Source of the DNA: an uncultured virus (IMG/VR IMGVR_UViG_3300036769_000405)
Taxonomy: Duplodnaviria > Heunggongvirae > Uroviricota > Caudoviricetes
Length of the DNA stretch: 64,000 bases
Direction: 5' to 3' (one strand)
Virus record (IMG/VR): IMGVR_UViG_3300036769_000405
Made by a program: the position numbers and the translations under genes. Below, in pieces: positions 15,862 to 64,000 of the stretch. The notes below the pieces were generated by a model. It was not told the origin of the DNA, searched no databases, and was given only the letters and a program-made list of their open reading frames with translations. Position 1 is the stretch's first letter. The number at the start of each line of letters is the position of its first letter.

Positions 15862-18800
15862 TTGCGTAAATTTATTTTGTCTTTTTTAACATTAGGTATA
15901 CTGATGTTAGTACCAAGCTTGCACGTGTACGCCTATCAGGCTGGACAAGTACAACAAGGTAGTTCTGGAGGATCAGGAAACTCTAGTAATACAGAGGACA
16001 CTGATCCTTACCAGGCATACACAACTTACACACCTAAGGTAACATTACTTAGAAACGCTAATGCTTTATGTGCCAACTCGGGTGAAGCAATCTATTATAT
16101 TCCCACGTTAGATGATTTACCATTAGATCTTGAGGCTTATGTTACTGATTGCACAGATGGGACTTATTCTCATAAGTTTGCTTATGTTTATAGCAGTTAC
16201 TTTAACTCTGACGCACAATTAGTAACAATATCTTCAGACTCTACGACTGCAGAAGCTCATACATCACAAAACATTGAAACAGCTTATATCGCAAACTCTA
16301 CGCTGAAAGATGTTGGATATGATTTGCTTTTGTTAAGTGATAGTTACTCAATGAAGACAACAAGTGGTACATCAGCTGAGATTTCTAATTTGCATGAAGC
16401 AGCTAATGATACAAACTTACAAGCTAAGTATGTTGTTATGGATTTGTACAAAGCTTTAGGTATTTACGAATATGATATACAGTTTTGTTTTACAAGAGAT
16501 CCTGATTTTGATGCCAACTCATCTCCTATATTACAGGAAATAACTGTATTAACATCACAGTCAGGAAGCAATGGTTTGAATATCAAAGAGTCCCGCACAG
16601 ACGTTGCTGTCTCAAGAACAAATTCAGAATTATACTGGATACGTTTCGATAAGGATGGTATTGCAAGAAAGCTAGAGAATAATACAGAAATAGAAGGATC
16701 ACAGATCACTGGATTAGCAACTTCTATTTCAGCAGAATCAACAATAACTTTTGCTCAGTTCTGCAATCTAGCAGTTGCTATGATGAATCTCTATGGCGAG
16801 GAAGCACTGACTGATACACAATATTCAGCATGTATTCAGAGTTATGGTACAGACATTACAGCAATTCAAACAAATAGTAAAATAGAAGAAACCTCAGCAA
16901 TTTACTTAATTGCTAAAGGTATTTTAGATGGTGATTCACTTCAGGATATTGCTTGGGATGAACCTGTACGTTTACTGAATGTATCTGGAAATACGTATAC
17001 GAACAGCAATTATATTCTTGATATTCTTGGACGTATAGCTAATCCTGATAGACGTTTAACATTGAAATCTTCAACACCAATTGATGCTACATTAGCAGCT
17101 GCTGGATACAGTGAAGCTACTGTTACTATCAATTCTATGATTTCTAATGTAATAACATTTTCTACAGATAGTTCATTCTTATATGATTATCTAATTGAAG
17201 TTGTTCCTGAGAACACTCACATATGTAGATATAACTCAGCAACCACTAGTTTGAACTCAACATCTGAGTCTCTATTAGCAACTACATCAACATCATCACC
17301 ACAAGGAACTGCTAGTAGCTCTGAATATAATGCTTTTGCAAACATGAGAGTTTTTGTTAATGGTATTGCTTATGATCCTAAGAATACTATAGATGATTGT
17401 TTGCAGAGTGGCGGTTATGTTTACTATGGAGTCATTACAGTTGATGGTAAACAGTATTATCATTTCAAGATGAAAAAGTTTTGGGAAGATGGTGCAACCG
17501 TTTACTTTGATTATCAACCAAGTAATACAGAGGAGATTGTTACAGATGCATCTCCAATTCGTTTGGAGTCTATGAGTGGTGGTGTGTATAGTTACTCATC
17601 TGGAAACTATATACGACAGAGTTTTACAGAAGCTAATTTTGTTGAATCATATATCGATGCTGAATCTTCAGTAAGTACACAACTTGCTTCTGGAAATACT
17701 ACATTACTATTCTATATGTCATCAGCAGTTAATAAGGAGATATTATCTCTTTATAACGATTCTACATTTACATGGACAAACATCTTTGATAGTAACAATT
17801 TGAGATATGGGGAGCCAGTAACTATATGCAATCGTTCAGATAATGTAACTATAATGACGGTGTTTAGTGGTACATCAGTTAATGGCGATTATGACCGTTG
17901 CGAGATAATCACTAATAATTTATCAGCTGTTCAAAACTCAAGTTTTTATACAAACTACTTAGGCTCTAATTCCGAAAAGAGGACTGCTAAAGGTTTCTAT
18001 AGAGCATCAAGTAATGGTTCATTAATGGTTGAATATGACTACCTGAAAGAACAAGGGCTAGTTTCTGGTTTCAAAGAAGTATCTGATGGTACCTATGTAA
18101 TTACTGCTGGTAAATATAAAACAAATGTAACTATTCTCACAAAGAATGATTTGATAATTGTCGGTGATACAATATACTCAAACACAGGTGGTGAAGTATT
18201 AGTACTTAAAACAAATGGTACAACATACATTAACTATCGATGTTGTTTAGGTTGGGCAGGTGACTTCGCTGTAATCCCTACAGGAGACACAATTGTAGCA
18301 ACACCAATACAATTGTTTGGTAGTACAACTTCAATAACACAGACAACGAAATCAATCTCTACATTTTACCCATCAGCAAATACAAAGTTGTTGTATAACA
18401 CTTTGGTTTATCATGAAAATGCAAGTGATGAAAAAGATTACGCTGGGTTTAGTCTAAGTGGTTCTTATGCATTAGCTCCGTACATCCTTGTGTCCACAGA
18501 TGACGATTATGATTATTTGTTTGTATGGCACAGAAATAATATCGTTAGTACAGATGGAAATACAGTATATAACATTTCTGTTGAAGATAATGATGCTGCA
18601 TTCAATAAGTTTAAAGAACTTACTGGAGTTAAGTTGAATAGTCAGAATAATTATTCGTTGGCAATGTTTCCACTGAACAAAAATGGAGTTGGTAATCCAG
18701 CTGGATTTGAGTATACAAAGCTTGAACAATCAAGTGCTCGTGGTACAAAATCAGCAACAGCTGGTTGGGTATATACACCACCGGTATTTAATGATGTACT

Positions 18801-19716
18801 GAGTGCATTAAATACATATGCATCAGTTTCTAGTGATTTAGCTATACCTATATTTGCTAGAACAGTTGGTAATGTTACACATTACTTTGATGCTAATGTA
18901 AACGTTTGTGCTGAATCTGCCGGTAATGATTATCTTCCCTTAGGAACAATGCCAAGTTATCTTACTACTGCAAATAAGGATACTTATTACAGTAAGTTGA
19001 CATCATCTGGGTCATATAGTACAACTACTGCTGCTGGGGAATCTACAAAAGCATACCCTATTTACACAGCACCTGTTGGTTTGTTTGCACAATTAAAAGG
19101 TATGGGAACAACAGCTGCTAAAGATATAGGTCAAGGTTCTATATATTTTGGTACAACTAAATGCACTTTAAGTAATGGGTCAATAACGATATCAGGTAGG
19201 GCTACAACATTTGATAGTTCATCAGAAGCTGTTTGTACATATATGAGCAATGGTTCTTCTTCAGTATATGCAGTTACTCTAGAATCAACTACACTTGGTG
19301 ATATACTTACTGCAATAGATCAAGAGTTAGAATATACACTTAACGATCCTGAAAACTTAGTAGACTGGAGTCAGTACAAGTTTGAACGCCTGATTCAAAA
19401 TCTTGATGCGTGGTCTACAGTAGTGCTCATTTTCGTGCTTAACATACTTCCACGTGTGGCTGTGCTTCTATTCTTTATTCTAATGCTTTTAAGCTTGATG
19501 AAAGACTGGAAGCCGTTTCAGATGTTTTGTCATAGGTGGTTTGATCCATTTAAATTCTTAACCTTAGGGCACATTTCAGTTGACAATGTTAACTTGAAAC
19601 GCTTGCTTATTATCTCACTTATTTGCATTAGTCTTATGATGGTTATCATGGATGGACAACTTTTTAACTTCATCATTTGGATAGCAAAGGCTCTAGTAGC
19701 CATTACTCAACGTTAG
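15862..19716 (+). CDS. Very large exported protein (signal peptide, SLH-like and beta-rich regions, C-terminal TM helices)
   Basis: Signal peptide ending VYA; ITFAQFCNL / LIAKGILDGD..WDEPV SLH-like segments; Ser/Thr-rich; 2-3 C-terminal TMs. Confidence 0.75.
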   Translation: MRKFILSFLTLGILMLVPSLHVYAYQAGQVQQGSSGGSGNSSNTEDTDPYQAYTTYTPKVTLLRNANALCANSGEAIYYIPTLDDLPLDLEAYVTDCTDGTYSHKFAYVYSSYFNSDAQLVTISSDSTTAEAHTSQNIETAYIANSTLKDVGYDLLLLSDSYSMKTTSGTSAEISNLHEAANDTNLQAKYVVMDLYKALGIYEYDIQFCFTRDPDFDANSSPILQEITVLTSQSGSNGLNIKESRTDVAVSRTNSELYWIRFDKDGIARKLENNTEIEGSQITGLATSISAESTITFAQFCNLAVAMMNLYGEEALTDTQYSACIQSYGTDITAIQTNSKIEETSAIYLIAKGILDGDSLQDIAWDEPVRLLNVSGNTYTNSNYILDILGRIANPDRRLTLKSSTPIDATLAAAGYSEATVTINSMISNVITFSTDSSFLYDYLIEVVPENTHICRYNSATTSLNSTSESLLATTSTSSPQGTASSSEYNAFANMRVFVNGIAYDPKNTIDDCLQSGGYVYYGVITVDGKQYYHFKMKKFWEDGATVYFDYQPSNTEEIVTDASPIRLESMSGGVYSYSSGNYIRQSFTEANFVESYIDAESSVSTQLASGNTTLLFYMSSAVNKEILSLYNDSTFTWTNIFDSNNLRYGEPVTICNRSDNVTIMTVFSGTSVNGDYDRCEIITNNLSAVQNSSFYTNYLGSNSEKRTAKGFYRASSNGSLMVEYDYLKEQGLVSGFKEVSDGTYVITAGKYKTNVTILTKNDLIIVGDTIYSNTGGEVLVLKTNGTTYINYRCCLGWAGDFAVIPTGDTIVATPIQLFGSTTSITQTTKSISTFYPSANTKLLYNTLVYHENASDEKDYAGFSLSGSYALAPYILVSTDDDYDYLFVWHRNNIVSTDGNTVYNISVEDNDAAFNKFKELTGVKLNSQNNYSLAMFPLNKNGVGNPAGFEYTKLEQSSARGTKSATAGWVYTPPVFNDVLSALNTYASVSSDLAIPIFARTVGNVTHYFDANVNVCAESAGNDYLPLGTMPSYLTTANKDTYYSKLTSSGSYSTTTAAGESTKAYPIYTAPVGLFAQLKGMGTTAAKDIGQGSIYFGTTKCTLSNGSITISGRATTFDSSSEAVCTYMSNGSSSVYAVTLESTTLGDILTAIDQELEYTLNDPENLVDWSQYKFERLIQNLDAWSTVVLIFVLNILPRVAVLLFFILMLLSLMKDWKPFQMFCHRWFDPFKFLTLGHISVDNVNLKRLLIISLICISLMMVIMDGQLFNFIIWIAKALVAITQR

Positions 19717-19737
19717 AAAATAAGGAGATGAATAATT

Positions 19738-21249
19738 ATGCATGGTATATGTAAATATGCTAAGGGATCATCCTTAGTGTTAGCTTTATCACTGCTTACA
19801 ATGCGCGTGCCTGTATTCGCTACAGCCACTACAAGTAACGCAGTGCAGGATATCATGAATGATGCTCGATTCCAGGGAGCCATAAGTTCTATTGAATGGC
19901 TTACTAATTTTATCGATCACTACTTCACGATTATCATTTCAGTAACAGCTTTCTTCATTATATCAGCAGCTTTGTTAAAGAATGTTTGTGCTGGTGCATA
20001 TGTAGCTAACCACAAGTTCTGGGATAAAGTTGCAGAAGCTCATGAGAAAGCAGATGCTGTAAGCCTTGCAGGAATCAAAGATTACTTTGGTGGCAAACAG
20101 TTTATGCAGACCGGTGCTGGTAGTATCAAAGATGCTTTATTGTGTTTTGTACCAAATATCAAAGCCTTAACTGACTTCGATGATGCTGATATTGAACCGA
20201 AAGCTTACTTCATGAAAGCAATTCCACAAATGCTTGTTTGTGTTATTATCGGTGTGTTCATCTATAATGGATACTATCGTGATACAGCTTCTGCTGTTGG
20301 AAGTTTTGGTTCTGAAATCTGTAACAGAGTTTTCGCTTCTGTTGACCCGGCTTCTTTTGTTGATAAGATCACTCTTACAACAAAGACACCTGATAACATA
20401 TATGAAAGTGATCAGACGTTACAAGGTCAGGATACGTATGCGATTTCATCAGCTATCTATAAAGTCATTATCAGTAATGCTACCGGATTAACCGAGGAAA
20501 CAAGTAAAGAGAAAGTTATGCGCACAGCTGAAAGTTTAGCTTATCAGCTTACAAGTAGTGAAGCATTCCAGTCTAAATTCTATAGTGATGCAAGATTGTA
20601 TGACTTCTCTACATCAAACCTCAAAGTAACGTTAACATTATCAATACCTGATAATTACTCTGGATCATTCTCAAGTCCGTATGTTGCTGCTGTTAGTGAT
20701 AGTAGTGATAGTCAGTATACTGTTACATGTTATCAGGATTTCACTAGTGAAGAGTGGGCAACTTACTTGGGTGAATATAAATTTATTTATTTATCAACAA
20801 CAATGAAAGGCAGCTCACGTTCTGATTCTACTGAGGGTAAAACCTCTACAACACCGTCACAGACAAGTTGGACTGATTCAACAGTTGATCCTATTGTTTT
20901 AAGTGTTAAGGCAAGTGTAGTTGATAGTAAGGACAGCGATGGAAATGCTTTATATAGCACGTCCAATGTTGCTATATCTTCTCTTATCTCTACAACAGCA
21001 CTTGAGCAGAAAGTAAAAGAGTACTGCTCAGCAAATAGCGTTAGTTACATAGATGGAACCATTAGTGTTGAAAGTTATAGTGGGTACAATGCAGGTTCCG
21101 GACAGAAACCTTGTATCAAGTTTAATAAAGTTAATTCTGGCGCTACAATCAATGTTACAGCATCCGTAGCATTTAAAGCTACATCAGATGGTACGAGTTC
21201 TAGAACTTATACCTTGAAAGTACCTATTACGTTCCAGTTACAACCTTAG
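19738..21249 (+). CDS. Membrane protein, putative transfer-apparatus component
   Basis: Signal peptide, N-terminal hydrophobic helices, Ser/Thr-rich beta C-terminus; context among large membrane genes. Confidence 0.65.
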   Translation: MHGICKYAKGSSLVLALSLLTMRVPVFATATTSNAVQDIMNDARFQGAISSIEWLTNFIDHYFTIIISVTAFFIISAALLKNVCAGAYVANHKFWDKVAEAHEKADAVSLAGIKDYFGGKQFMQTGAGSIKDALLCFVPNIKALTDFDDADIEPKAYFMKAIPQMLVCVIIGVFIYNGYYRDTASAVGSFGSEICNRVFASVDPASFVDKITLTTKTPDNIYESDQTLQGQDTYAISSAIYKVIISNATGLTEETSKEKVMRTAESLAYQLTSSEAFQSKFYSDARLYDFSTSNLKVTLTLSIPDNYSGSFSSPYVAAVSDSSDSQYTVTCYQDFTSEEWATYLGEYKFIYLSTTMKGSSRSDSTEGKTSTTPSQTSWTDSTVDPIVLSVKASVVDSKDSDGNALYSTSNVAISSLISTTALEQKVKEYCSANSVSYIDGTISVESYSGYNAGSGQKPCIKFNKVNSGATINVTASVAFKATSDGTSSRTYTLKVPITFQLQP

Positions 21250-21277: not shown

Positions 21278-24200
21278 ATGCTTAAAACTTTTGTAAAGAG
21301 ATGTATCGCATCTCTACTGATTGTTACAATTTGTGGTGGGATTATTTGTCCCACCACAAATATTTATGCTAATACGACAATAACCTCAAGCATGACAGCA
21401 TTTACAGAAACCGTTAGTGGTTATTATCCTACCACTACATTTAATGTTGCAGATGCTGAGTTAATTAAAATAAAATATAATAACACAACAGAATATTTTT
21501 TATGGGCTAATACTATTGCAACTACATCCATGATTGGGAATTATCAGTGGACAACAAATTCTGGATCATTGAATGGAGATGCTAACAGTTTCTCAACAGT
21601 ACTATCTAAGATTGATGACTCACTTGGAGTGGATGTTACAAGCGCTAACATCATGTCAGCTTTAAATAATTTAAGTTCTTCACAAGGAGCTTCTAATGCT
21701 GACTTGTCAAATATTAATCAGCGTATGGCAGCATTTTTATATATGCGTTTAAACCCTACATTGTTTAAAGGATCAGGTAATTCATATAAGTGGGAATCTG
21801 TAGAATCAATTGACGATTCAGATTATGCAGATATGTTAAACACAACCTTATCTTTAGGTTATAGTGAGTCTCTCAGTTATAAAATGTATAAAGCAGGTTT
21901 GTGTGCTTCAGATCAATTGCTACGTATTGATGGTTTATCTATCAATAGTAATTGGTATGGTAGTATTAACAATCTTGGAGTTGTTGCTATAGATACTATG
22001 ACTTCAACATCGAATGGTGGAGCATTTCCAACTGATATAGATGCTTCACAGGGAAATAGAGCATACAGCGTGAACAATAAAGTTTTCATAGCTAATGAAA
22101 TTGCTATATATACTTGCCTTGAAGAATACCTTGATTTTTATTTAGACTCTATGCCTCAGATTGCAAATTCAGCAGGGTGGGAAGAGAACTCTACATACAA
22201 AGCTCAATTAACTTACATTAAGACTTTTGCAGAAGCATTTGGAGATATGATTCCATTTATTGCAAAACTCTATACAAAGGTTAATTCCAATGCTAATGGA
22301 ATGTCTCTGCAAGATATGGTAAATAAGTCTGGTGCTTCAAGTAGTTCTCTGCAGGATGCATTTGATGTTGATATTTCCACATATACAGCACATACAGATA
22401 ATTCATCACCAGTCACTCAGTTCTATACTATTAATGCTTCTACAGGTATTATAAGTTATGATCGTGATGCTATTCTTGCTGATATAGATGTTGATACTAC
22501 TCAAGATGGTATCTTACAAGATTCTCAAGAGTCTCAGAGATATGATACAGCAACATCTGGAGATGAAGATGCTTATCAGATTGTTAATACTTTTTTAGGT
22601 GAGCAGGCCGATACTGCACAAAAGATTCTTAATGACTTCGCTGTTATTAATGATGAAACAGCACAGGTTAATGATCAGAATAGAGCTATAAACGATATTA
22701 TGGATATCTTTGCTACAGGTGGTGAAGGTAATATAATATTAAAAGTTTTTGAAGAATATTATGGAAATACCTGGACAACATCATTTGAACAAGCAATGCG
22801 CTTGAATAATACAGCTTCTGTAATGCAGTTGTTAAATGACCAAGATAAACTGAAACAGTTACAAGCCATCGTTGACGGTATGTCTAGTGATCTTACAGAG
22901 TACCTTGCTAATAACACAACAAGTATAGCTCAATTAAACACTGTGTTGGAGGGTGTGACAATATTAGATCATGGTGTTTCTGCAGAGGGTCAATCAACAT
23001 CCTATACTTCAGTAACTATAAATGATTATATTATTCAAGGCATGGCATTGAGTGCAACATTTATTCCAATGCGTACAAATCTTTACGCTCCGGAAACAAT
23101 AGCAACATTTAAGGATGATGACTCAGCTGACAGTTTTTACAACTTCTACATAGATTATGGATTTATGCGGAAAGCTCTGCTGATAGATACATCGGCAACC
23201 GCTGCTACGGATTATTATAATTCAAATGGACTATCTACTGGAAGTTTAAAAGTTTGTACGCTGAGAGATTTAATTGAATCAGGTGATAATGATGTTGTTC
23301 TATACATTGATTCTGAATTTTACAATGCAGAGGATGCTATTAATCAGGGCACAACGCTATTGTCAGCTGCAAGAGATAACCGTGTTAACTTGTGCCTAAG
23401 TTTGCAAGAGTTTACACCCATCTGGAAGAATGCTAGCTTTTGGACAAATAATTCATCAGTAGTTGTTAGTACTGTTAGTGACACAACATTGAAGAACTCT
23501 TTATTGAGTCTAATGACAGTAGATGCTGAAGATGATAAAAAATATAAGTTTGATATAGACGAATTACGTACAACCTATCGTAAATCATTACTTGATACTT
23601 ACAAATTTGACATAGATAAGTTTGATACAGAAGCTGATATGCAAGATTATGCAGATAATCTTGAGTACGCAAATTCAATGTCTACACAAGTTGCTGTAGA
23701 TAATCAAATGTTAAAAACAAATGGTTATACAACTTACAATAGTTCTGTTAGAGCAATACTAGCTGAGGTTGATGATTCAGATTATGTGAATCTTGCATCT
23801 GATAGTGATAGTACTTTCGAAGGTATCTTTCATATTGATTGGACTGATGATGACTATAATACTGATGATAATCCGGATACCATTGTTATGACCTCTGCTC
23901 AAATAAATCAGTACCTTAGTGGTGAAATGACTTATTCTGAAACAGTTAGAGATGAAGCAAACGGAACAGAAACTATTACAAAGTACACAGCTGATACTGG
24001 ATATACTCCACTTATGTCTTTAGCTTGGGTATCGTGTCTTTACAGAAATGCTAACACATATACATTAGCCAATACAGTCGAAAGTAATAATCCAGTGTTT
24101 ATGGCGTCAGATGATTTATGTGGAATTTCAGGTGCCAATCAGTGGTATCGCAATTCTCTATTAAATTATGCATTGCTGAAAAATCTTTCAGGAAATGCAC

Positions 24201-28533: not shown

Positions 28534-29745
28534 ATGACTTCTAAAACTATTGTTATAGTATCCGGAATAGTTGATGCTACTATCAAAGAGTATCAACCCG
28601 ATGTTGAATTCAAGATATTCAAAACGATGGATGGATTGGCTGAAGCACTTGAGCAAAACCCTATTCGTGCTGAACTTCTTTTCTTTACTAAAGATGTTGT
28701 TGCAGGTGCTGCCTCAACATTTTCTTTCCTAAAAGATTTAACACTTAACAATGATTTCTTTCAGGTAGATAGGGTTATTTACATTACAGAAGAAGACTCA
28801 CAGGAGTTGTCTTCTTTCAATTATCTTGTTGAAGAATTTGAGTTAAGTAATTGGGAAGTAATTAAAGGACCAGCTAACCGGTCCTTTGTTCAGGAAGTAA
28901 TCAATGGAACATATCGCGAAGATAATCTCGATGTACATAGAAAGGTAGTTATACGACGTCCTAGAGCAGATTATATCAAACAGCAACTTAAACATCAGGA
29001 TTCATTGGAAGAGGAATATACAGATGATGAACATGATTTGATGGACATTCCTGATGAAGAGATTCCTGAAGTAGATATTGAGGAACGTCCTAACATCCTT
29101 CAAAAAGTCTATATTGCTGGTCGTAAATGTAAAGAGCGTACAGCCTTTGCTGTATTAGCAGCTCAGTATCTTGCGAGAACTGATAAGGTTCTTTTAGTAG
29201 AATCTGATCCGAATTATCACTTAACAACAGAGTTTATAACAAAGGCTAAAGTACCTTGTTCTGTTATAACAATGACTGAGATTTATGATGATATTTCTCA
29301 AGCCATTGAACGTATTGTTAATGCTGATAATAATCTTGTTGTAATTGAATGTATTGATAGAATACCATTTGATTACAAGTACATGTTATCGTTACTCTAT
29401 TATACTCTGATGACAGAATTCACTTATATCATTTGTGAAACTGATATTAGTGAACTTCCATATGACACGCCTGTTACAGTTGTTATACCTAGTACAGTTA
29501 CAGATATTCTTGCTACTGGAGAATTAATTGATAAATCTTTTGTTCCATATTGCAGATTTGTAGGTGTTGATTTAAAAGAATTACCTGAAACACATATTAG
29601 CTCAGGTGTTGTCATGAGTAAAATTTTGAACGATATTTTAACAGAAACAAATATTATATGTCCAGTTGTAACAATATCTGGACTTCGCTTAGGAAAGAGT
29701 GCATATGACCTTGGCGGTATACTTGGAAGAGGTGTCCTACTATGA
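28534..29745 (+). CDS. Receiver-like N-terminus + degenerate MinD/ParA-like domain (CpaE/TadZ-like architecture)
   Basis: KVYIAGRKCKERTAFAVLAAQYLARTDKVLLVESD mirrors MinD G-K-GG-GKT...KVLLID.D but with a degenerate Walker A. Confidence 0.55.
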   Translation: MTSKTIVIVSGIVDATIKEYQPDVEFKIFKTMDGLAEALEQNPIRAELLFFTKDVVAGAASTFSFLKDLTLNNDFFQVDRVIYITEEDSQELSSFNYLVEEFELSNWEVIKGPANRSFVQEVINGTYREDNLDVHRKVVIRRPRADYIKQQLKHQDSLEEEYTDDEHDLMDIPDEEIPEVDIEERPNILQKVYIAGRKCKERTAFAVLAAQYLARTDKVLLVESDPNYHLTTEFITKAKVPCSVITMTEIYDDISQAIERIVNADNNLVVIECIDRIPFDYKYMLSLLYYTLMTEFTYIICETDISELPYDTPVTVVIPSTVTDILATGELIDKSFVPYCRFVGVDLKELPETHISSGVVMSKILNDILTETNIICPVVTISGLRLGKSAYDLGGILGRGVLL

Positions 29746-30863: not shown

Positions 30864-30864
30864 G

Positions 30865-33879: not shown

Positions 33880-33941
33880 ACTCATGCGGAGGCTATTACT
33901 TGTCTCCGCATATTACAGGCAATAGTTGGAGGACATTACTA

Positions 33942-35087: not shown

Positions 35088-35097
35088 AGGTGATTAT

Positions 35098-35922: not shown

Positions 35923-35935
35923 GAGGATTTTTAAA

Positions 35936-45512: not shown

Positions 45513-45790
45513 ATAAACGCAAGAAGCTTGAAGAAACTTTTGCTGACTACCCTAGTATTGCTGAAATTTACTCTGATAAAGATTTTACTTTTGAGAAAGA
45601 CACTGCGTGTTTTTACTGTTTGTTTCTGGACACTCGTAATGACAGTAAGAATATTGATATTGTCAAAATGCTTATGGATATCAGATATATTTTCAGTGAT
45701 GACTCTAGGTTGTATTTTGCAAAAAGTGGGCAGGATATTATGCTGCTAGGTAAGAAATTGATTTGGCGAAAAGGCAGGTGGTACATATGA
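45497..45790 (+). CDS. Hypothetical protein
   Basis: GGAGG RBS. Confidence 0.6.
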   Translation: MLGQINKRKKLEETFADYPSIAEIYSDKDFTFEKDTACFYCLFLDTRNDSKNIDIVKMLMDIRYIFSDDSRLYFAKSGQDIMLLGKKLIWRKGRWYI

Positions 45791-54627: not shown

Positions 54628-55617
54628 ATGCACAAGGTTAATATTGGTGTTATTATTGCATTGGTAATTTTTGTTATATTAAATATCGTGCAATTTATTT
54701 TATGGCACAATGCAAATGAGAAGATATCAGAACAGTACACTGCTGAGATCGCAAATCTTGAACAAACAATTGCAGGGTATGGTACTGAAACAACTGTGTA
54801 TACAGTCACGTCTGCTGTTAAAGCAGGTGATCAAATCACAGCTGATAACATTGAGCCTATGAAGATGTATTCCTCATTAATGACAGCACAATTTGTCACA
54901 AACACCAGTGATATCATTGGAGGTTATTTCAAAGTAGCAGTTAATCCCGGAACGCCTATCACTTACAATATGACAATGGAAGAAGAACTCGATGATACTA
55001 TGAGAGATCATGATATCATATTAGACAGTATTCCGGTTGGTACAACTGTTGGTGATTACATTGATATTCGTATGACAATGCCATATGGTGATGATTATAT
55101 CGTTATTTCACATAAGCGTATCTATGGTATTAGTGATGGTACAATCAAACTCTATATGACAGAGTTGGAGTGGAATACATATGAGGGCGCTCTGATTGAT
55201 TACTTCTTAAATCAGGAATACGGTTGTACACTCTATGGAACACGATATATTGAGCCTGGAATCCAGCAGGATGCTGTAGCTTACTATGCTGTTCCTACAA
55301 ACATTGCTGCTTTACTGAGTAAGAACCCGAATATTGTTGACAAAGAAGAAGCAGTTAGTCTGAATGAGTGGCGCGAGTCTATTGAGGAGTTACTTGTTAT
55401 TTTCCGTGATGAAGATGATACAGTTGACTCTGATGGTAGTAAACTTGCAGCTGGTCGTTCAACAATGAACGAAGCTATTGAAAGCGATCGTCAGAACAAG
55501 GCTGATTCTGATGCAGAAGCTGCTGAGGCAGAAGCTGATAGTGATTACACAGATGAGATCACAGATGACTTTTGGGATGAAGATATAACGGATGGAGGTG
55601 GCTCAGATGGTAATTAA
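54628..55617 (+). CDS. CpaB/RcpC-like SAF-domain pilus assembly protein
   Basis: N-terminal TM, VKAGDQIT, IIG.Y.KV....GTPIT SAF motif, LP...VGDYIDIR...G.DYIV.SHK. Confidence 0.8.
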   Translation: MHKVNIGVIIALVIFVILNIVQFILWHNANEKISEQYTAEIANLEQTIAGYGTETTVYTVTSAVKAGDQITADNIEPMKMYSSLMTAQFVTNTSDIIGGYFKVAVNPGTPITYNMTMEEELDDTMRDHDIILDSIPVGTTVGDYIDIRMTMPYGDDYIVISHKRIYGISDGTIKLYMTELEWNTYEGALIDYFLNQEYGCTLYGTRYIEPGIQQDAVAYYAVPTNIAALLSKNPNIVDKEEAVSLNEWRESIEELLVIFRDEDDTVDSDGSKLAAGRSTMNEAIESDRQNKADSDAEAAEAEADSDYTDEITDDFWDEDITDGGGSDGN

Positions 55618-56191
55618 CATTATCGGGGATTGTGATAAACGTCCTGTACTCTATACCGTTATGAAAATCTGTCAGAGTTTAGGTGATGTATTACTCGTAA
55701 CTTCTAGCAGTCGCTTGATTCGATTATCAGATACAGGTGAGTCCTATGGCCATTATCAGAACACTATGATTGCTGTGACGCAGGATGGTATCGATGATTT
55801 CTGGGAACAATTTATTTATGGTGTTAGTGATTTTGAGTTCATTATAATCGATAATCTTGTTTCAGCTGATGCTGATTTAGTCATTTATGTAAAAGGAATG
55901 ATTGAATCAGAAGCTGAGAAAGATAATCTGGAATATATCGATTCTTATGAAACGATCGATCTTTACAAAGGTAAGTTACTTGATGCAACAACAATGATAC
56001 GTTGTGAAGAGTTTGAAGCTTTAAAAGACATGGTTACTGTTAATACAAAAGTAGCTGAAAAAGTTTCTACAATCATGGCTAAAGCGTTAAATACTGATGC
56101 CAAAAAGATATATGCAATGGCAACAGTTCAGACTTCAACACATATGAACAGTGTCCCGTCAGCATCTAAAGGATTTTTTGGAAAGAGGTAG
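55607..56191 (+). CDS. Degenerate P-loop protein of the Tad cluster
   Basis: INIIGDCDKRPVLY...GDVLLV...FIIID: MinD-like layout without a canonical Walker A. Confidence 0.55.
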   Translation: MVINIIGDCDKRPVLYTVMKICQSLGDVLLVTSSSRLIRLSDTGESYGHYQNTMIAVTQDGIDDFWEQFIYGVSDFEFIIIDNLVSADADLVIYVKGMIESEAEKDNLEYIDSYETIDLYKGKLLDATTMIRCEEFEALKDMVTVNTKVAEKVSTIMAKALNTDAKKIYAMATVQTSTHMNSVPSASKGFFGKR

Positions 56192-56196
56192 AAATC

Positions 56197-56973
56197 ATGG
56201 CTCATAAGATTATGGTAATGTCACCTCTGCACAATACTGGTGCTACTGTTGTGTCACAGATGATTGCTCAGGGGCTTACATTTGATAACAAAACAACAAC
56301 CCTTGTCTTCACACAACCCGATTCACTCTTGCCTAAGTATTTAGGTATAGATGATATCAAAGACCCTACAAGGTCTATCATGCAGATTGTCAAATTGATT
56401 GACAATGGTGCTATTGAAGACAAGGATATTCTTGACTATGCTTACAGTTACACAAAGAACGGTTGGTTAATGAATTTAGCTGATCCGTCTTTAGCTGGTA
56501 AGGATCGTCAACATATTATATCGCACATTTACAGTCGTGTACCTACAGACATAGTTGTGTGTGATAACTCAGAGGATATTGATTCACCACTTACTCAGGC
56601 ATTATTGGAAGACAGTGATATGATCTTCATTGTCGTCGATATGTCTATGAAGTGTAGACAGCACTTGGAAGCTTGGTTACAATCTCCACAGCTTAAAAAT
56701 CATGCTAACGTTTACATTGTAGTTAATAAGTATAATGAGGTTGTTTATGCTGTGAGAACTTTTGCTAAGATCATCGGAATCTCAGCTAATCGTGTTTGTA
56801 AGTTGCATTATAATCCTTGGATTATGAAGTGTACTGTAAACAACCAGCTTCACACAATATTACCTCTGGCTCGAGGACTTGATCCTCGGGTTTCTAATCT
56901 CAACAATGATATTAACGAAATTAACCAATGTGTTAATGGTGATATGGTATTGAGAATGAAGAAAGGATTCTAA
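56197..56973 (+). CDS. CpaE/TadZ (MinD/ParA-like) protein
   Basis: KIMVMSPLHNTGATVV, IVVCD, SDMIFIVV, IVVNKY; position before TadA. Confidence 0.7.
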   Translation: MAHKIMVMSPLHNTGATVVSQMIAQGLTFDNKTTTLVFTQPDSLLPKYLGIDDIKDPTRSIMQIVKLIDNGAIEDKDILDYAYSYTKNGWLMNLADPSLAGKDRQHIISHIYSRVPTDIVVCDNSEDIDSPLTQALLEDSDMIFIVVDMSMKCRQHLEAWLQSPQLKNHANVYIVVNKYNEVVYAVRTFAKIIGISANRVCKLHYNPWIMKCTVNNQLHTILPLARGLDPRVSNLNNDINEINQCVNGDMVLRMKKGF

Positions 56974-58990: not shown

Positions 58991-60973
58991 ATGAGTCTAA
59001 CTAAACTTGTAATTGTAGCCTTAATCCTAATGATTGTTGTATCAGTTTTTCTGATTTCTGCTATGAATGCTCTTTCAAAGAAAAAGAAGATTTCAGAGAA
59101 GCAGAAGATGCAGCAATACAATAAACGATTTCGTTTCTATTACGATTTCGTTTTAACACGCTCGATGTTCCGTAAGATATATGGACAGGTGGCATCACTT
59201 TCAGTTTACAATATGCTTGAATGCAGAATGATAACTGTTAAGTTTTTTGAGAAAGCTTTGATTACAGCTATTATACTTTTTATACTAGGATTCATTGGAA
59301 TGGGTGATCCTGTATCAGGTGTAGTACTTATGTTATTTGCTTTGGTACTTATCAATAGCACTGTCAGTAAGCGAATTGACGATGTAAATTTCAAATCTCT
59401 AAAATCAATGTCACAATTGATACAATCAATACGAGAGTGTTATACACGTGTCAGAAATGTTCCTGATGCAATCAATGATGCTCAATGCCCACCACTATTA
59501 CAAAAACAGATGGATGAAATCTATCTGATATGTACAGCAAACAATGCAAGAGAGCGTCTAAATGAGTTCTACAAAAAGTGTCCTAACAGAATTATGAGAA
59601 CATTAGCTACCACTTGTTATATAAGAACTGATGCTGGTGAGGGAAATGCTAAAACGTATTCTCCATTTAAACAAGCTTTAGGTCTTATCAAAGATGAAGT
59701 GGATATGGAAGTTCGTCGCCAGATTAACCAGCGGCTTATGTTTAACGCGTTGGACAAATTACCTTTTGTACCATTATTCTTATACCCGTTTATCAAGATA
59801 TTCTATACGAATATGATTTCCGCTACAACAAGTGTGTTTGATAGTACAACGGGATATCTTATTAAGTTAGCTGTTGTATTAGCTAGCTTTGTATCATATT
59901 ACATGTTAACAACTATGAATAATCCTTCTATTGCTCGTTCAGATGATAGAATGTTGATTCTGGAAAAGTTAATGTATAGAGATAATGTACAAAAGTTTGC
60001 AAGAACATTGGTAACAAAGAATTGGAAAAAGAGGCATGATACAGAGAAGAAACTTGAGGGTTGTTTATCTTCTAAGACGATAGACTATTATTACCTTGAG
60101 AAGTTTGTATATGGGATAGTGCTTTTTCTGGCAAGTATCATTGTGTCTATTGTGATACTAATATTTGCACGGAATGCCTGTTACAATGGTCTCTCAGCCT
60201 CCACAATGTCAGCAACATTAACATATACATCTGATCAAGAGAAACAAACTCTTGAGTATGATCACGAAGTATTAGCACTTGATGCTTTACCTAGTGAGGA
60301 TGATATGTACAGCCAATTCGAATTGATATTTCCAAAAGCAACAACAGTAGAATTGGATGCTCAAGTTGAGCGTTTAACTCAGAAGTACAAGACTTGGAAT
60401 AAATTAGGTTTCAAATGGTGGTTTGCTTTCATCTATATTGCAGTAGCTTTTATAGGTTGGAACATACCTAATGCATTACTTAAGTTACGTGTTAAGTTAG
60501 TGCAGTCTGAAGCCGAAATGGATGTCCTACAGCTCCAAACGATTATAGCTATTTTGATGGATACACCTCTCGACACTTTAAGTGTTATTTACTGGTTATC
60601 AAAATCATCAGATATTCATAAAGATATCCTAACATATTGTTATCATGAATATGTAAGATATCCAGAATATGCTATTAATCACTTGAAGTCAAAGTCAGCA
60701 AGTGCTGAGTTCAGTTCTATGTGTGATAAGTTGTTAACCACAATTTATCAAGTAACTCTCGCTGAAGCTTTTGAGGATTTAATTGCTGAGCGAGACAATA
60801 CTATGAAAATTCGAGAAGTTGTGCAGCTTGATGCACTGAAGTCAAAACGTAATTTAGCAGGACCTATTGCTACGATGCCCATGATTGTTTGGATGGTAGC
60901 AGCATTCATACTACCTATTGGAATAGTTGCTGTAAGGTCGGCTATCTCTATGATTGGACAATTAAACATGTAA
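58991..60973 (+). CDS. TadB/TadC-like fused inner-membrane platform protein
   Basis: 660 aa with two T2SSF-like repeats (TM pair-helical domain-TM), directly after TadA. Confidence 0.7.
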   Translation: MSLTKLVIVALILMIVVSVFLISAMNALSKKKKISEKQKMQQYNKRFRFYYDFVLTRSMFRKIYGQVASLSVYNMLECRMITVKFFEKALITAIILFILGFIGMGDPVSGVVLMLFALVLINSTVSKRIDDVNFKSLKSMSQLIQSIRECYTRVRNVPDAINDAQCPPLLQKQMDEIYLICTANNARERLNEFYKKCPNRIMRTLATTCYIRTDAGEGNAKTYSPFKQALGLIKDEVDMEVRRQINQRLMFNALDKLPFVPLFLYPFIKIFYTNMISATTSVFDSTTGYLIKLAVVLASFVSYYMLTTMNNPSIARSDDRMLILEKLMYRDNVQKFARTLVTKNWKKRHDTEKKLEGCLSSKTIDYYYLEKFVYGIVLFLASIIVSIVILIFARNACYNGLSASTMSATLTYTSDQEKQTLEYDHEVLALDALPSEDDMYSQFELIFPKATTVELDAQVERLTQKYKTWNKLGFKWWFAFIYIAVAFIGWNIPNALLKLRVKLVQSEAEMDVLQLQTIIAILMDTPLDTLSVIYWLSKSSDIHKDILTYCYHEYVRYPEYAINHLKSKSASAEFSSMCDKLLTTIYQVTLAEAFEDLIAERDNTMKIREVVQLDALKSKRNLAGPIATMPMIVWMVAAFILPIGIVAVRSAISMIGQLNM

Positions 60974-61619: not shown

Positions 61620-62231
61620 ATGAATTCTGATGAAGGCGTAAGCATGGCCAAAATGGCTGTCACAGTGTTACTTGTTGTTCTCGTAATCGGTGCCGTTGTA
61701 GGTATCGTTTATGCAGCTTATAGCTGGTTTGGTAATGGTACTAGTAAACTGACTGATACTGTTACATCTATCGACAGATCAGCTTATTCTCAATATGATG
61801 ATGCTCAGGTTACAGGATCTGATGTGTTATCAGCACTCAAGACTTATAGAGAATCTGATATTTCAATCTTTATAAGTAATAACTCTATGGACGGTTATGA
61901 GAATTACTCATCCGGGAAAGCAGTTGAGGCTTGTAATTATTGCTCTCGCGTTTATACAAAATGCGGTACTAATTCTGGCAATGCACCTGATGCTAATGAT
62001 TCTGGTAATTATGTTGTTGAATTATCACTTGAAGATGACACATTTTCTTGTGCTGATTTTATTTATGACTCTTCGAAGATTTCAACGCTTCACAATACAA
62101 ACTTCAGTCCTACTACTACTACCAGCAATACACAGGCTTATGTGAAACAGTCTGCTAAATGGTATGCTAAGTTGGTATATTCTGAAACGACCAACGATGT
62201 AGCAGGTATCCTGTTCATGCAGATGAACTAA
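61620..62231 (+). CDS. Pilin-like protein (probable major subunit)
   Basis: Short leader MNSDEG|VSM, long hydrophobic helix, YSQYDDAQVTGSDVLSAL motif, C-terminal GILF.Q. Confidence 0.65.
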   Translation: MNSDEGVSMAKMAVTVLLVVLVIGAVVGIVYAAYSWFGNGTSKLTDTVTSIDRSAYSQYDDAQVTGSDVLSALKTYRESDISIFISNNSMDGYENYSSGKAVEACNYCSRVYTKCGTNSGNAPDANDSGNYVVELSLEDDTFSCADFIYDSSKISTLHNTNFSPTTTTSNTQAYVKQSAKWYAKLVYSETTNDVAGILFMQMN

Positions 62232-62357
62232 CATGTTCTAAGTTTTCTACAGAGAACGAAGTATCCCTGATACTTCTAGTACCTGTATAGTATCGACGTT
62301 ACATTAAGTCATGCTTAATTAAATAAGATACTATCCAATATGAAAGGAGAGAACTTT

Positions 62358-63017
62358 ATGGATGAGGCAAAACTTTTAACGCACATGTCAGTTTCTGCAA
62401 TTTTATCTGCAATGGTGTTAGCAGCTGCCATAGGTCTGATCGGAGTTGGTTATACTATTTGGGCCTACTTCTCTCGACAAGATGCAGCTAATCAACGGAT
62501 GGCAACTTATGCCAATTATACTGCTTTTGATAATACGACTGTTCGAGGTCAGGAAGTCATTAGTCTTCTTGAAAGTGATCTTGACCTCTTTGTAATTATA
62601 TATGACGGAACAAGTTCCGATAAAACAATTGATAATATGAAAGTAAGTAGCAATCCACGTGCTATCTATTATTCTGATGTATCAGGTGTTAATAATTTTA
62701 ACTTTGGTTCTATACAATCAACAAGTAATGCAAACACTACATGTGCTAATGCATTGACAAGATTAAAAAGTCTCGGTAATAAAACACCTAGTACATTATC
62801 AGTTACTTACAATCTTAATAACGTAAGTCATTCAGACCTTATAGCTTATTTTACAGATGCAAGACTTGGTAAAATAGCTAAAGATAACAAGGGTAATCTA
62901 ATCAATACAGGTACATACTCAGCTTTTAAATCTACACTTGTTTATGCAGAAGATGGTACTACTGATGTTGTAGGTATTATTCTTGTTAGAGCAAGTGCTG
63001 ATGTTACATCATATTAG
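62358..63017 (+). CDS. Pilin-like protein
   Basis: N-terminal hydrophobic helix; YTAFDNTTVRGQEVISLL and DVVGIILV match 61620..62231. Confidence 0.65.
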   Translation: MDEAKLLTHMSVSAILSAMVLAAAIGLIGVGYTIWAYFSRQDAANQRMATYANYTAFDNTTVRGQEVISLLESDLDLFVIIYDGTSSDKTIDNMKVSSNPRAIYYSDVSGVNNFNFGSIQSTSNANTTCANALTRLKSLGNKTPSTLSVTYNLNNVSHSDLIAYFTDARLGKIAKDNKGNLINTGTYSAFKSTLVYAEDGTTDVVGIILVRASADVTSY

Positions 63018-63029
63018 GGAGGTGATACT

Positions 63030-63572
63030 TTGAATGTAAATGAGGGTATCACACTCACAAAGATGGCAATTGGAGTTTCATTAACTGTACTTTTACTTGG
63101 AGCTGTCCTTGGTGTATGGTATTTAATGTCTTCGCATGAGAGTAAACTTCAAGCTTCTATGGAGACAGCATCATTATCAGCTGCTACAGAGAGATTATAT
63201 GAGTTTCAAGATATGTCTCAGACCGCTGATGTTACTGGTGTTTATGAAGATCATCCATTGGTTACAAATGTATGTAATGCTTTAAGTGAATATAATGAAG
63301 ATAGTTTATTATTCATTTATGTAACAGTAAAAGATGGCAATTCTTATACTGATACACATTATTATACTTACAATGGTGTCTCTTTAAACTCTACAAGTTT
63401 ATCCTCGTTTCCTGGACATTCTTCAGCTACACAACTTTATAGTGGAACAGAAATACCTGTAACATATGCAGTTAAACAACTACTAACTTATTCACAATAC
63501 AGATGTCATGTCGAGTTAGGTAATTATAATAGTACCTATACTTACATTGTCGTAGAAGTATTGTTAAATTAA
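63030..63572 (+). CDS. Pilin-like protein
   Basis: MNVNEG|ITLTKMAIGV parallels MNSDEG|VSMAKMAVTV. Confidence 0.65.
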   Translation: MNVNEGITLTKMAIGVSLTVLLLGAVLGVWYLMSSHESKLQASMETASLSAATERLYEFQDMSQTADVTGVYEDHPLVTNVCNALSEYNEDSLLFIYVTVKDGNSYTDTHYYTYNGVSLNSTSLSSFPGHSSATQLYSGTEIPVTYAVKQLLTYSQYRCHVELGNYNSTYTYIVVEVLLN

Positions 63573-63584
63573 GGAGGTGATTGT

Positions 63585-64000
63585 ATGGGATTAAGTGATT
63601 TAAATTCAGATGAATTCGAGTCTATGTTTGAGTTGATAATCATTATTATATTTATGTCCTTTGGAATATGGGCAACGACTTTAATGGTTAAAGACATGGC
63701 TGCTCATGTAGAGTTAAGTAATCATCCTGACAAGATTGCAATAACTTCTACAATACATTATGCAGAAGATCCATTTTGGTATACGGGTTACCAAGCTTAT
63801 ATGTTCTCTTGGCATATGGACGAACTTTCAGATGAATCATTATCCTATGTTGGGGGCTCTATGAGTACTGGAATGGCTTCAGCTAGATTAGATGGGACAG
63901 ATAACAATCATGTAACCTTATCTACATTGACTACAGACTCTTCAGGGAATACTACACGAATAACACAATTCCTTACTTGGAGAAATCAGATGATAACTGG
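63585..64000 (+). CDS. Pilin-like protein, 3'-truncated by the window
   Basis: AAGGAGGTG RBS; MGLSDLNSDEFESMFELIIIIIFMSFGIW... hydrophobic N-helix; open to the window end. Confidence 0.55.
   Translation, partial: MGLSDLNSDEFESMFELIIIIIFMSFGIWATTLMVKDMAAHVELSNHPDKIAITSTIHYAEDPFWYTGYQAYMFSWHMDELSDESLSYVGGSMSTGMASARLDGTDNNHVTLSTLTTDSSGNTTRITQFLTWRNQMIT

Follow-up and report, generated by a model that had tools for sequence, protein, structure and literature searches.

A candidate conjugative element that pairs a divergent VirB4-like locus with a type-IV-filament-like gene cassette

Background

Gram-positive conjugation is generally portrayed as working without pili, and typing schemes routinely class the large plasmids of Bacillota as non-mobilizable. 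We describe here a 64,000-nucleotide stretch of DNA (the window) filed as an uncultured virus (IMG/VR record IMGVR_UViG_3300036769_000405), which encodes a VirB4-like ATPase among giant envelope proteins and wall hydrolases, a replication module, and a cassette of genes resembling those for type IV filaments. We take the window to be about one-third of an element some 185 kb long, one of a widespread and as yet undescribed family of giant plasmid-like or integrative elements (about 155–280 kb) of anaerobic Bacillota (Clostridia). The reading towards which we lean is that this is a giant, largely autonomous conjugative element that combines a divergent Gram-positive type IV secretion system (T4SS) with a type-IV-filament-like accessory machine and is not spread by virions. 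Such an element can be episomal or integrated. A first-pass annotation, made from the letters of the window, had proposed pilus-assisted conjugation on a self-replicating element. The co-occurrence of VirB4-like and TadA-like genes and the lack of recognised virion genes agree with that proposal, but the identification as a Tad pilus is not established, the arrangement is not unique to this element, and no relaxase was found in the relatives scanned.

The closest described systems are the Gram-positive T4SSs of mating-pair-formation (MPF) types FA and FATA and those with a CD1110-type VirB4. The element shares with these the two-domain VirB4 fold, adjoining transmembrane-hairpin and polytopic proteins, wall hydrolases, the common orientation of the genes and, in the relatives of the window, a motor of the FtsK/SpoIIIE family. 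However, its VirB4-like protein falls below every curated threshold, its putative channel giants reach 1284–1804 amino acids (aa) with large outside-facing domains, and in our scans it has no relaxase, no VirB8-like protein and no match to a PrgI model. In addition, it is 155–280 kb long and has its own replisome and RNA polymerase (RNAP). The published description of the tra region of the conjugative plasmid pAW63 lists homologues of VirB11, VirB4 and VirD4 as well as NlpC/P60, with the 'VirB11' (T2SSE family, 444 aa) followed by two mid-size and several small open reading frames (ORFs) (PMC1196294). A T2SSE-family ATPase, NlpC/P60 and VirB4 thus recur in this pAW63/pXO2-type region as in the window, whereas the pAW63 ATPase lacks the N-terminal extension seen in the proteins of about 620–665 aa, and the description of the tra region mentions no SAF protein.

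Tad systems are often plasmid-borne, and in the relevant part of a survey of type IV filaments no link to conjugation is made (PMC6668835). The window's cassette shares with Tad/Flp (type IVc) pili a SAF/CpaB-like protein, a ParA/MinD-like protein, an ATPase that matches CpaF, a polytopic protein, small proteins with hydrophobic N-termini, and a Tad-like gene order. It differs in having no Flp or TadE-type motif, and its matches to the families of that system all lie far below the cut-offs. Literature searches, whose coverage left out most subscription journals, found no description of the element family or of the Tad–T4SS pairing in Bacillota as a pilus–T4SS unit.

Among large replicons, the Hodor megaplasmids of gut Bacillota are 'huge phage' genomes without TerL that were shown to be conjugative, according to the main text of their description (PMC12934698). 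Like the element described here they are large, come from huge-phage or viral collections, lack TerL, and encode a VirB4-based T4SS and giant surface proteins. They differ in all the markers that were compared, carrying Rep_3, ParAB, sortases, SecYEG and a MOBH-like relaxase, in their greater average length (357 kb among the curated genomes) and in their GC content (44–47%); Tad, pili and RNAP are never mentioned in that main text. We considered and rejected membership of the same family, as Rep_3, ParA/ParB, sortases, SecYEG and a MOBH-like relaxase are absent among the ORFs of two relatives of the window (G003:C51 and G001, below). Jumbo phages with a multisubunit RNAP resemble the element in encoding RNAP beta and beta', in having a replisome of the PolA type and genes for nucleotide metabolism, and in their size (150–280 kb). 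However, virion and packaging genes are not recognised in the element, and its two RNAP subunits, at 1109 and 1220 aa, are full length and only about 28% identical to any phage record.

Results and Discussion

A divergent VirB4-like ATPase

The 685-aa ATPase encoded in the middle of the window (Table 1) gave nothing above threshold in Pfam, PHROGs or NCBIfam, and a search of the PDB with the single sequence returned nothing useful. With a 13-member family profile, the sole significant PDB match was VirB4 of Thermoanaerobacter pseudethanolicus (4AG5, E = 4.3e-4), in an alignment to the ATPase domain that runs across the Walker A motif. An AlphaFold2 model of the protein (pLDDT 68.4) was compared with known structures using Foldseek, and VirB4 accounted for all of the top 12 among the matches listed. 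The R388 protein TrwK aligned over 612–648 columns covering both domains (E = 3e-14), and 4AG5 and 4AG6 reached a TM-by-target of 0.67–0.68, while DndH-C, Cag-beta, HerA and TrwB ranked behind the VirB4 structures. Profile and fold therefore agree with the first-pass annotation in making VirB4 the best match.

The family profile also recovers the annotated CD1110-type VirB4 of plasmid pCY360 (E = 2.5e-4). In a word-indexed protein database we found 182 relatives of the ATPase, many on contigs of 100–280 kb, including one named protein from a Lachnospiraceae metagenome-assembled genome (MAG) and two with a precomputed TraG P-loop domain. An exhaustive search yielded 388 cluster representatives, of which 254 reach E <= 1e-10. 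Among 25 representatives sampled, 14 touch DUF87/HerA (11), P-loop_TraG (4) or AAA_10 (4), mostly below the cut-off, and the other 11 touch no such model; on these grounds the family can be regarded as a deep branch of the VirB4/HerA clade that standard models miss. The suspicion that such models overlook the system is further borne out by the plasmids that carry the cassette, all 34 of which are typed as non-mobilizable by MOB-suite in PLSDB. The VirB4-like family itself is nearly absent from PLSDB (two weak matches at 22% identity). Scans of IMG/VR with the single protein and with the profile recovered only one contig, and 50,697 phage records contained no match to 20 kb of sequence (megablast) or to the VirB4-like protein (tblastn).

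A cassette resembling type IV filament systems

By hydropathy, a second set of membrane proteins follows the replication block. It opens with an anchored SAF protein, after which come two soluble proteins, an ATPase of 665 aa, a polytopic protein of 660 aa and a further soluble protein, and then four small proteins whose N-termini are hydrophobic. The SAF domain supports the CpaB label proposed earlier; in NCBIfam the protein matches the FlgA C-terminal domain (8.5e-7) and CpaB (4e-5), both below the cut-off. For the neighbouring protein labelled TadZ, we found weak matches (best 8e-4) to Tyr-autokinase and BcsQ models, which we take to be ParA/MinD-type.

The 665-aa ATPase belongs to the T2SSE superfamily. 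CpaF is its best match in the PDB (E = 0.054 with the sequence alone and 0.0065 with a profile of four orthologues), followed by VirB11 and PilT, and the alignment extends from the Walker A motif to the His box. The closest NCBIfam models, 'TadA family conjugal transfer-associated ATPase' (6.9e-4) and VirB11 (9e-4), are both far below their cut-offs. A CpaF/VirB11-type ATPase is thus supported, for which TadA, as first proposed, and VirB11 are both candidates. The alignments behind several of the profiles used in this work hold three or four sequences.

The 660-aa polytopic protein is a candidate for a fused platform of the GspF/PilC/TadBC type. Its topology fits, and structural comparisons gave leads in the same direction: Atlas linked it to a TadB-named cluster (features, 0.88) and, in both halves, to T2SSF clusters (TM 0.59). 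A poor AlphaFold2 model (pLDDT 48.8) compared in VIA gave SpoIIIAB (Z = 8.3, 116 of 130 residues), which presumably has the GspF/PilC fold, EpsF (Z = 6.3) and PilC (Z = 6.3 and 6.1), all below the bar for helical bundles. However, Pfam T2SSF and a sequence search of the PDB found no match, and hhalign against TadB, TadC and PilC of the host gave probabilities of at most 1.5%, so that the earlier TadBC label is carried by topology and by these structural leads.

The four small proteins, three of which are paralogues, have orthologous sets of five to six leader-plus-helix proteins in G001 and G003. Their leaders lack the conserved glutamate, with lysine or arginine rather than glutamate near the start of the helix. 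The soluble protein between them and the platform candidate had been labelled as a single-stranded DNA-binding protein, a label that gains no support from Pfam, PHROGs or NCBIfam, none of which gave a match.

Relatives of the element

Three relatives were identified. The contig recovered from IMG/VR (G001) is 185,025 bp long with 51% GC and a CheckV completeness estimate of 85%. A scan of GTDB genomes added two further carriers of the VirB4-like gene, a contig of the cultured Pseudoflavonifractor capillosus ATCC 29799 (G002:C39) and a 155,790-bp contig binned with a MAG of Candidatus Endomicrobiellum (cubanum) (G003:C51). Genes in the relatives were called as greedy ORF picks. G001 is collinear with the window from 13.4 to 62.2 kb at 25–50% amino-acid identity, and 26 ORFs of the window have a match in G001 and 22 in G003. 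Gene order is conserved among the elements despite GC contents of 34% and 51%. The VirB4-like and TadA-like genes occur together in all four elements.

From its ends, which are identical over 55 bp, we read G003:C51 as a complete circular element. It has a uniform GC content of 33% and 165 of 170 ORFs on one strand, and it is collinear with G001 all round. The first-pass annotation had proposed looking for circularity and synteny in relatives; both are found, the former in G003:C51 and the latter in the order of the shared block. G003:C51 also encodes CWB2 wall-binding proteins, whose pattern of occurrence we take to point to a clostridial host, and the relatives of the element itself sit in Clostridia. 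On this basis the contig probably comes from such a host and was mis-binned.

The P. capillosus copy spans 208.9–316.8 kb of G002:C39, where the contig ends within the element. It opens at a Tn916-type tyrosine integrase, at which GC falls from about 60% to about 50%, and its proteins are 80–90% identical to those of G001. The RNAP beta and beta' genes and the VirB4 block are intact. However, the PolA and FtsK blocks are gone and the SAF gene is cut to 106 aa, and the copy is therefore an integrated, decayed element. A chromosomal operon or chromid was rejected as an account of the element: its DNA carries no rRNA, tRNA or core-metabolism operons, the P. capillosus copy shows the GC drop and integrase, and one relative is circular.

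In addition, the relatives encode PolA (about 1064–1077 aa), a clamp loader, a 5'-3' exonuclease, a Toprim primase, UvrD and an NAD-dependent ligase. They also encode an FtsK/SpoIIIE protein of 1129–1160 aa with a transmembrane segment (Pfam, 1.6e-25 to 4.9e-27). This is the only candidate for a coupling protein, none being found in the window with Pfam or NCBIfam. RNAP is full length in G003 and G002, with beta' subunits of 1101–1109 aa (Rpb1 domains) and beta subunits of 1220–1237 aa (Rpb2 domains); the G001 contig stops just short of the expected position. GreA and HSP70 are found in the relatives, a sigma-like protein accompanies GreA in both G001 and G003 (in G001 with sigma-70 region 4), and G003 has a ParM-like protein. 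No tRNA genes were found in the element, and 49 of 177 ORFs of the circular relative encode membrane proteins.

A second, conventional T2SSE ATPase (457–462 aa; PF00437, 1e-33 to 3e-38) is conserved in G001, G002 and G003 but is not in the window. It is paired with a soluble protein of 653–668 aa (the pair at 126271–129647 in G001 and 73138–76493 in G003:C51) and could be the VirB11 equivalent of the T4SS.

The cassette on plasmids of cultured Bacillota

Searching PLSDB with the 665-aa ATPase (tblastn) identified 34 plasmids of 100–543 kb with homologues at 26–36% identity, 31 of which cover 83–99% of the query. The plasmids come from Paenibacillus (10), Clostridium (9), Lysinibacillus (8), Butyrivibrio (2) and five other genera, and the homologues are annotated as ATPases of type II secretion, type IV pilus or type IV secretion systems, as TadA or as CpaF. 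The same cassette order is shared by pCY360 and pCY186 of Butyrivibrio proteoclasticus B316, pBsph of Lysinibacillus sphaericus C3-41 and 30 other large Bacillota plasmids in PLSDB. In the four plasmids examined closely, the genes follow the order of the window, with a SAF protein, then one or two proteins of middle size, the ATPase (about 620–650 aa), a polytopic protein (about 665–690 aa) and small proteins, which number four in pCY360, pCY186 and pBsph as in the window. Wall hydrolases often precede the cassette.

On pCY360 the cassette is directly followed by genes for a type IV coupling protein (T4CP), a PrgI-family protein and a CD1110-type VirB4, and pCY186 has a VirD4-like gene some 18 kb upstream of its copy. 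The pairing of the cassette with T4SS genes is real, recurrent and not confined to the element in the window. These plasmids differ from the element in that pCY186 and pBsph are annotated with ordinary plasmid replication proteins (and ParM on pCY186) and pCY360 with a canonical VirB4. No PolA, DnaB or RNAP module was found in the plasmid stretches examined in the pCY360, pCY186 and pBsph group.

Search for virion genes

The proteins of the window include no capsid, portal or terminase recognised by Pfam or PHROGs. For the circular relative G003:C51, PHROGs were run on 150 of 177 ORFs and Pfam on 150 ORFs, including six of the seven that span the borders of 20-kb fetches; 20 ORFs shorter than 95 aa and one border-spanning ORF of 76 aa were left out. 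In G001, Pfam was run on 122 ORFs and PHROGs on 109. Neither contig yielded a capsid, portal, terminase, sheath, tube or baseplate family in these scans. Six-frame searches with PF05065, PF03354 and PF04860 (HK97 capsid, TerL ATPase and portal) found nothing in G001, G002:C39 or G003:C51 at E <= 0.1, with models that match three to four of 14 control genomes and that have no match above cut-offs in the P. capillosus genome itself. The capsid or terminase genes that the first-pass annotation thought might lie elsewhere on the contig are thus not seen in the circular relative or in the two partial ones. The only 'terminase' label encountered is that of phrog_2666, which is weakly matched by the FtsK/SpoIIIE and VirB4-like proteins. 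Because FtsK/SpoIIIE proteins match it too, phrog_2666 is, as far as these matches go, an FtsK-like family. The RNAP beta' and PolA proteins of the element are at best 25–29% identical to phage records.

A conjugative element and its alternatives

The mechanism proposed here is read from sequence and predicted structures. In a conjugative element, the wall hydrolases would open the thick cell wall, and the polytopic giants, the transmembrane-hairpin proteins and the VirB4-like ATPase would build and power a channel. The FtsK-type motor, which probably drives DNA transfer, would act as the coupling protein or pump the DNA, possibly in double-stranded form because no relaxase is visible. The filament-like cassette would form a short, wall-spanning pilus or pseudopilus that aids recipient contact or channel assembly. 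Finally, the element's own transcription and replication genes would allow establishment with little help from the new host.

Several observations weigh against this interpretation. The sequence read is 64 kb of the window's own contig of 184,686 bp, and the FtsK-like gene of the relatives lies about 60 kb from VirB4, outside the window. No relaxase, Rep_trans or HUH family was found among 150 ORFs of G003:C51 or 122 of G001 at E <= 1e-4, a threshold that a divergent relaxase could escape. No Rep protein was recognised by Pfam scans in any copy, nor was an oriT, although no search aimed at one was made. The P. capillosus copy lacks the RuvC-like gene, the primase zinc finger, UvrD, the Toprim primase, FtsK and PolA. 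For the filament, neither Pfam T2SSF nor the A24 prepilin peptidase (PF01478) has a match in G001, G002:C39 or G003:C51 at E <= 1; PF01478 does occur in other parts of the G002 and G003 genomes, so that the host could supply the enzyme. The small proteins show the leader and helix pattern that led to their label as pilins, but they match no pilin family (Pfam, NCBIfam) or fold, and Atlas gave unnamed look-alikes only. Membership of the Tad family, claimed at first, is left unsupported by the lack of an A24 peptidase, of a Pfam T2SSF match and of a verified pilin fold. Lastly, IMG/VR files G001 as viral with its CheckV completeness of 85%, the set of replication and RNAP genes resembles that of jumbo phages, and many ORFs of G003:C51 matched no family at the thresholds used, such that novel virion proteins are possible.

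A related interpretation, which we hold tentatively and rate well below even, is that these elements are capsid-less descendants or sisters of jumbo-phage-like replicons that have kept virus-style replication and transcription (a PolA replisome, RNAP beta and beta', a sigma-like protein, GreA and chaperones), with a divergent T4SS and filament machine replacing the virion. If so, they would be a distinct class of giant mobile elements bridging phages and conjugative plasmids, and Gram-positive conjugation on large plasmids would widely include a dedicated pilus or pseudopilus as an integral component that has so far gone unrecognised.

The main rival, which we consider unlikely, is that the element is a jumbo phage or phage-plasmid with virion and packaging genes so divergent that they escape recognition. 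In that case both machines would work for the phage, for example in egress, superinfection exclusion, host adhesion or DNA delivery, and the FtsK-like ATPase could be a packaging motor, as in membrane-containing phages. The filing and completeness estimate of G001 fit such a phage, as do the gene complement (PolA, clamp loader, RNase H, DnaB, split primase, ThyA, NADAR/gp30.3-like protein, RNAP beta and beta', a sigma-like protein and GreA), the placement of nearly all genes on one strand, the many ORFs of no known function, and the weak matches of the FtsK-like and VirB4-like proteins to a PHROG labelled 'terminase large subunit'. However, no virion family was found in a complete circle and two partial copies by PHROGs, Pfam or six-frame searches, the VirB4-like protein is unmatched in the phage records, and the phage matches to RNAP beta' and PolA are distant. 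The absence of tRNA genes and the large share of membrane proteins also speak against a phage, and homologues of the cassette lie beside T4SS genes on ordinary Rep/ParM plasmids. A precedent is provided by the Hodors, 'huge phages' without TerL that proved, in the main text of their description, to be conjugative megaplasmids (PMC12934698).

A further alternative, which we judge improbable, is that both machines are cargo that benefits the host, delivering effectors or toxins or forming an adhesion or biofilm pilus for gut colonisation, while the element spreads vertically or by mobilisation. Tad pili are classically adhesion organelles, which favours this view. The lack of a recognised relaxase or oriT and the non-mobilizable typing of all the cassette plasmids also fit it, as do the chemoreceptor and the giant surface proteins, with wall-binding SLH or CWB2 domains, that the elements encode. 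On the other hand, the block is core, not variable cargo, and is collinear in four of four elements over 34–51% GC. Wall hydrolases beside VirB4 together with an FtsK-type DNA motor are a signature of Gram-positive DNA transfer, and the cassette of pCY360 is contiguous with T4CP, PrgI and VirB4 genes.

The Com pseudopili of Gram-positive bacteria likewise combine a T2SSE ATPase, a platform and pseudopilins. A competence-like or Ced-like import apparatus, in which a pseudopilus and a VirB4/HerA-like ATPase capture DNA or enter cells much as the type IV pilus Ups and Ced (VirB4-like ATPase) are described as cooperating in aggregation and DNA import in Sulfolobales (summary in PMC11868833), is nevertheless very improbable, as general family scans found no ComEA, ComEC or DprA-type genes in any copy, the best fold matches are bacterial conjugative VirB4 proteins, and the neighbouring hydrolases and FtsK-type pump suit export.

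If the cassette belongs to the transfer machine of a conjugative element, then the mobility of a large share of Bacillota megaplasmids is underestimated, and typing by MPF and mobilization (MOB) models will require additional profiles. The line between viruses and plasmids is blurred as well, as the family has a jumbo-phage-like information-processing core with a full multisubunit RNAP and no recognised virion genes, which matters for virome catalogues and for ideas on the evolution of giant replicons. The question can be tested in culture, given the decayed copy in P. capillosus ATCC 29799 and the Butyrivibrio plasmids pCY360 and pCY186.

Gene layout and envelope proteins

All large ORFs between 13.4 and 64.0 kb of the window are on the + strand. 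Only 7 of 77 listed ORFs of at least 100 aa are on the minus strand, and each either shadows a longer + strand ORF or falls in a gap. GC skew is positive in 32 of 32 two-kilobase windows, and the GC content is 34%. The co-orientation of the gene array noted at first is therefore real. The stretch from 15.8 to 64 kb holds 47 ORFs, and Pfam identifies six of them above its cut-offs (Peptidase_M15_4, RNase H, DnaB_C, NADAR, the CHC2 primase zinc finger and SAF); eight match PHROGs, none of them a virion protein.

Table 1. Genes and gene groups of the window, with positions counted from its first nucleotide
Feature	Position	Strand	Evidence
130-aa conserved protein, opens the block collinear in all relatives	13409..13801	+	49-50% identity to orthologues in G001, G003
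1284-aa secreted giant with C-terminal membrane anchors	15862..19716	+	N-terminal signal-like transmembrane segment and two C-terminal transmembrane segments
503-aa membrane protein	19738..21249	+	three predicted transmembrane segments; orthologues in G001/G003 at 39-47% identity
1804-aa polytopic giant	21278..26692	+	signal-like segment and six predicted transmembrane segments in two clusters
Two transmembrane-hairpin proteins, 160 aa and 316 aa	26762..28212	+	two adjacent transmembrane segments each
Three soluble proteins, 403, 373 and 317 aa, just 5' of the VirB4-like gene	28534..31818	+	no transmembrane segments
VirB4-like ATPase, 685 aa, Walker A SGWGKT	31822..33879	+	profile and predicted fold
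Seven consecutive proteins with N-terminal anchor and outside-facing body	33900..39747	+	one N-terminal transmembrane segment each
NlpC/P60-like wall hydrolase	37054..37776	+	just below Pfam cut-off; PHROG lysin 5.7e-9
Peptidase_M15_4 wall hydrolase	38695..39747	+	above Pfam cut-off
Two tandem paralogues, 323 and 409 aa	39835..40806, 40834..42063	+	36% mutual identity
240-aa protein with zinc ribbon and P-loop-like motif	45763..46485	+	present in 4/4 elements, 41-44% identity
RNase H, 163 aa	46570..47061	+	Pfam RNase_H 5e-11
DnaB-type replicative helicase, 472 aa	47065..48483	+	Pfam DnaB_C 2e-10; PHROG DnaB-like 6e-25
Stand-alone CHC2 primase zinc-binding protein, 166 aa	52639..53139	+	Pfam Zn_ribbon_DnaG 4e-7; PHROG DNA primase 1.5e-9
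RuvC-like resolvase candidate, 288 aa	53612..54478	+	via G003 orthologue only
SAF-domain CpaB-like protein, 329 aa	54628..55617	+	Pfam SAF 4e-5, above cut-off
199-aa protein between SAF and ParA/MinD-type genes	within 54628..56973	+
ParA/MinD-type protein, 258 aa, TadZ-like	56197..56973	+	Tyr-autokinase model 8e-4, BcsQ 5e-3 (NCBIfam)
Secretion ATPase, 665 aa, T2SSE (CpaF/TadA/VirB11) superfamily, N-terminal transmembrane segment	56977..58974	+	profile against PDB
Polytopic protein, 660 aa, candidate fused GspF/PilC/TadBC-type platform	58991..60973	+	5-6 transmembrane segments
Soluble protein, 182 aa	60988..61536	+	orthologues 21-23% identical
Four small pilin-like candidates, last one cut by the window end	61620..63998	+	acidic leader ending G/A, hydrophobic helix of ~20 aa

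The hydropathy scan places the envelope proteins in the order of a secreted 1284-aa protein, proteins of 503 and 1804 aa, two transmembrane-hairpin proteins, three soluble proteins, the 685-aa ATPase and seven anchored proteins. The 130-aa protein that opens the conserved block has no match in Pfam, PHROGs or NCBIfam, and its orthologues sit directly upstream of the giant-protein genes in G001 and G003. The description of the first three envelope proteins as giant and polytopic is confirmed, with N-terminal signal-like segments and two to six further predicted transmembrane segments. The 1284-aa protein, with orthologues of 1258 aa (G001) and 1144 aa (G003), matches no family in the same three libraries, nor does the 1804-aa protein, whose orthologues in G001 and G003 are 1643 and 1454 aa long at 34–35% identity. 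From its topology, the 1804-aa protein is a candidate for a VirB6-like channel or wall-spanning component.

The 316-aa hairpin protein (27262–28212) is kept in G001 and G003 at 37–39% identity. It had been called PrgI-like, but it matches no PrgI or VirB3 model in Pfam or NCBIfam and is VirB3-like in topology only. Across the window, no match to PrgI, VirB6 or VirB8 models was found in these two libraries, though the hairpins, polytopic giants and bitopic wall-facing proteins fit in topology. Of the three soluble proteins, those of 403 and 373 aa are 40–46% identical to their orthologues in G001 and G003, and the 317-aa protein has no counterpart there; none has a family match above 0.01 in Pfam, PHROGs or NCBIfam.

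Two of the seven anchored proteins that follow VirB4 are wall hydrolases, the M15_4 peptidase and, more weakly, the NlpC/P60-like protein. The equivalent position in G003 holds two Glucosaminidase proteins and an M23 protein. The first-pass annotation had counted four peptidoglycan hydrolases; the other two (33900–35087 and 35098–35922; 395 and 274 aa) have no match in Pfam, PHROGs or NCBIfam, and PDB searches with both gave no hydrolase. The two tandem paralogues downstream (39835–42063) have a long hydrophobic core rich in alanine, glycine and valine and a conserved C-terminal domain, with no family match.

Replication module

The DnaB, RNase H and primase zinc-binding labels all hold above Pfam cut-offs. 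The Toprim part of the primase is a separate gene in the relatives. In contrast, the 240-aa protein previously labelled DnaC has no DnaC or AAA+ match in Pfam, in NCBIfam or by profile against the PDB; by position it is possibly a helicase loader. The RuvC-like label draws weak support from the G003 orthologue (36% identity), which matches PHROG families of Holliday-junction resolvases (5e-7 and 9e-6), but the window protein itself has no match in Pfam or PHROGs and its profile finds nothing in the PDB.

Other genes of the window and its relatives

The region from 1 to 15.8 kb encodes a methyl-accepting chemotaxis protein, a thymidylate synthase and a DUF1232 protein. The chemoreceptor (969–2675; MCPsignal, 1.9e-27) has a Cache-like sensor, and its counterpart in G003:C51 (98795–100513) has a 4HB_MCP sensor. 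A chemoreceptor is unusual cargo for a mobile element. Thymidylate synthase (ThyA) is encoded at 6094–7047 (E = 1.2e-57). A NADAR-domain protein at 49964–50389 (1.2e-21) also matches phage gp30.3 and the NCBIfam model for NADAR anti-phage proteins, and G001 has three NADAR genes.

G003:C51 carries toxin-antitoxin and defence-type genes, namely HipA_C (three), Fic (six), pairs of HEPN/HepT and nucleotidyltransferase genes, and AAA-ATPase_like (five, three of them with PDDEXK_9), along with four PDDEXK_2 transposase-like genes. The toxin-antitoxin and defence regions (17.4–33.9, 59.6–65.7, 78.8–80.5 and 118.7–120.1 kb) are absent from the syntenic block of the window. In G001, two SLH-anchored proteins with an ATLF-type metalloprotease domain (Pfam ATLF, 4e-9 and 8e-6) are encoded at 47.4–51.3 kb, near the integrase end and adjoining an S26 signal peptidase; by family name they are putative secreted, wall-bound proteases.

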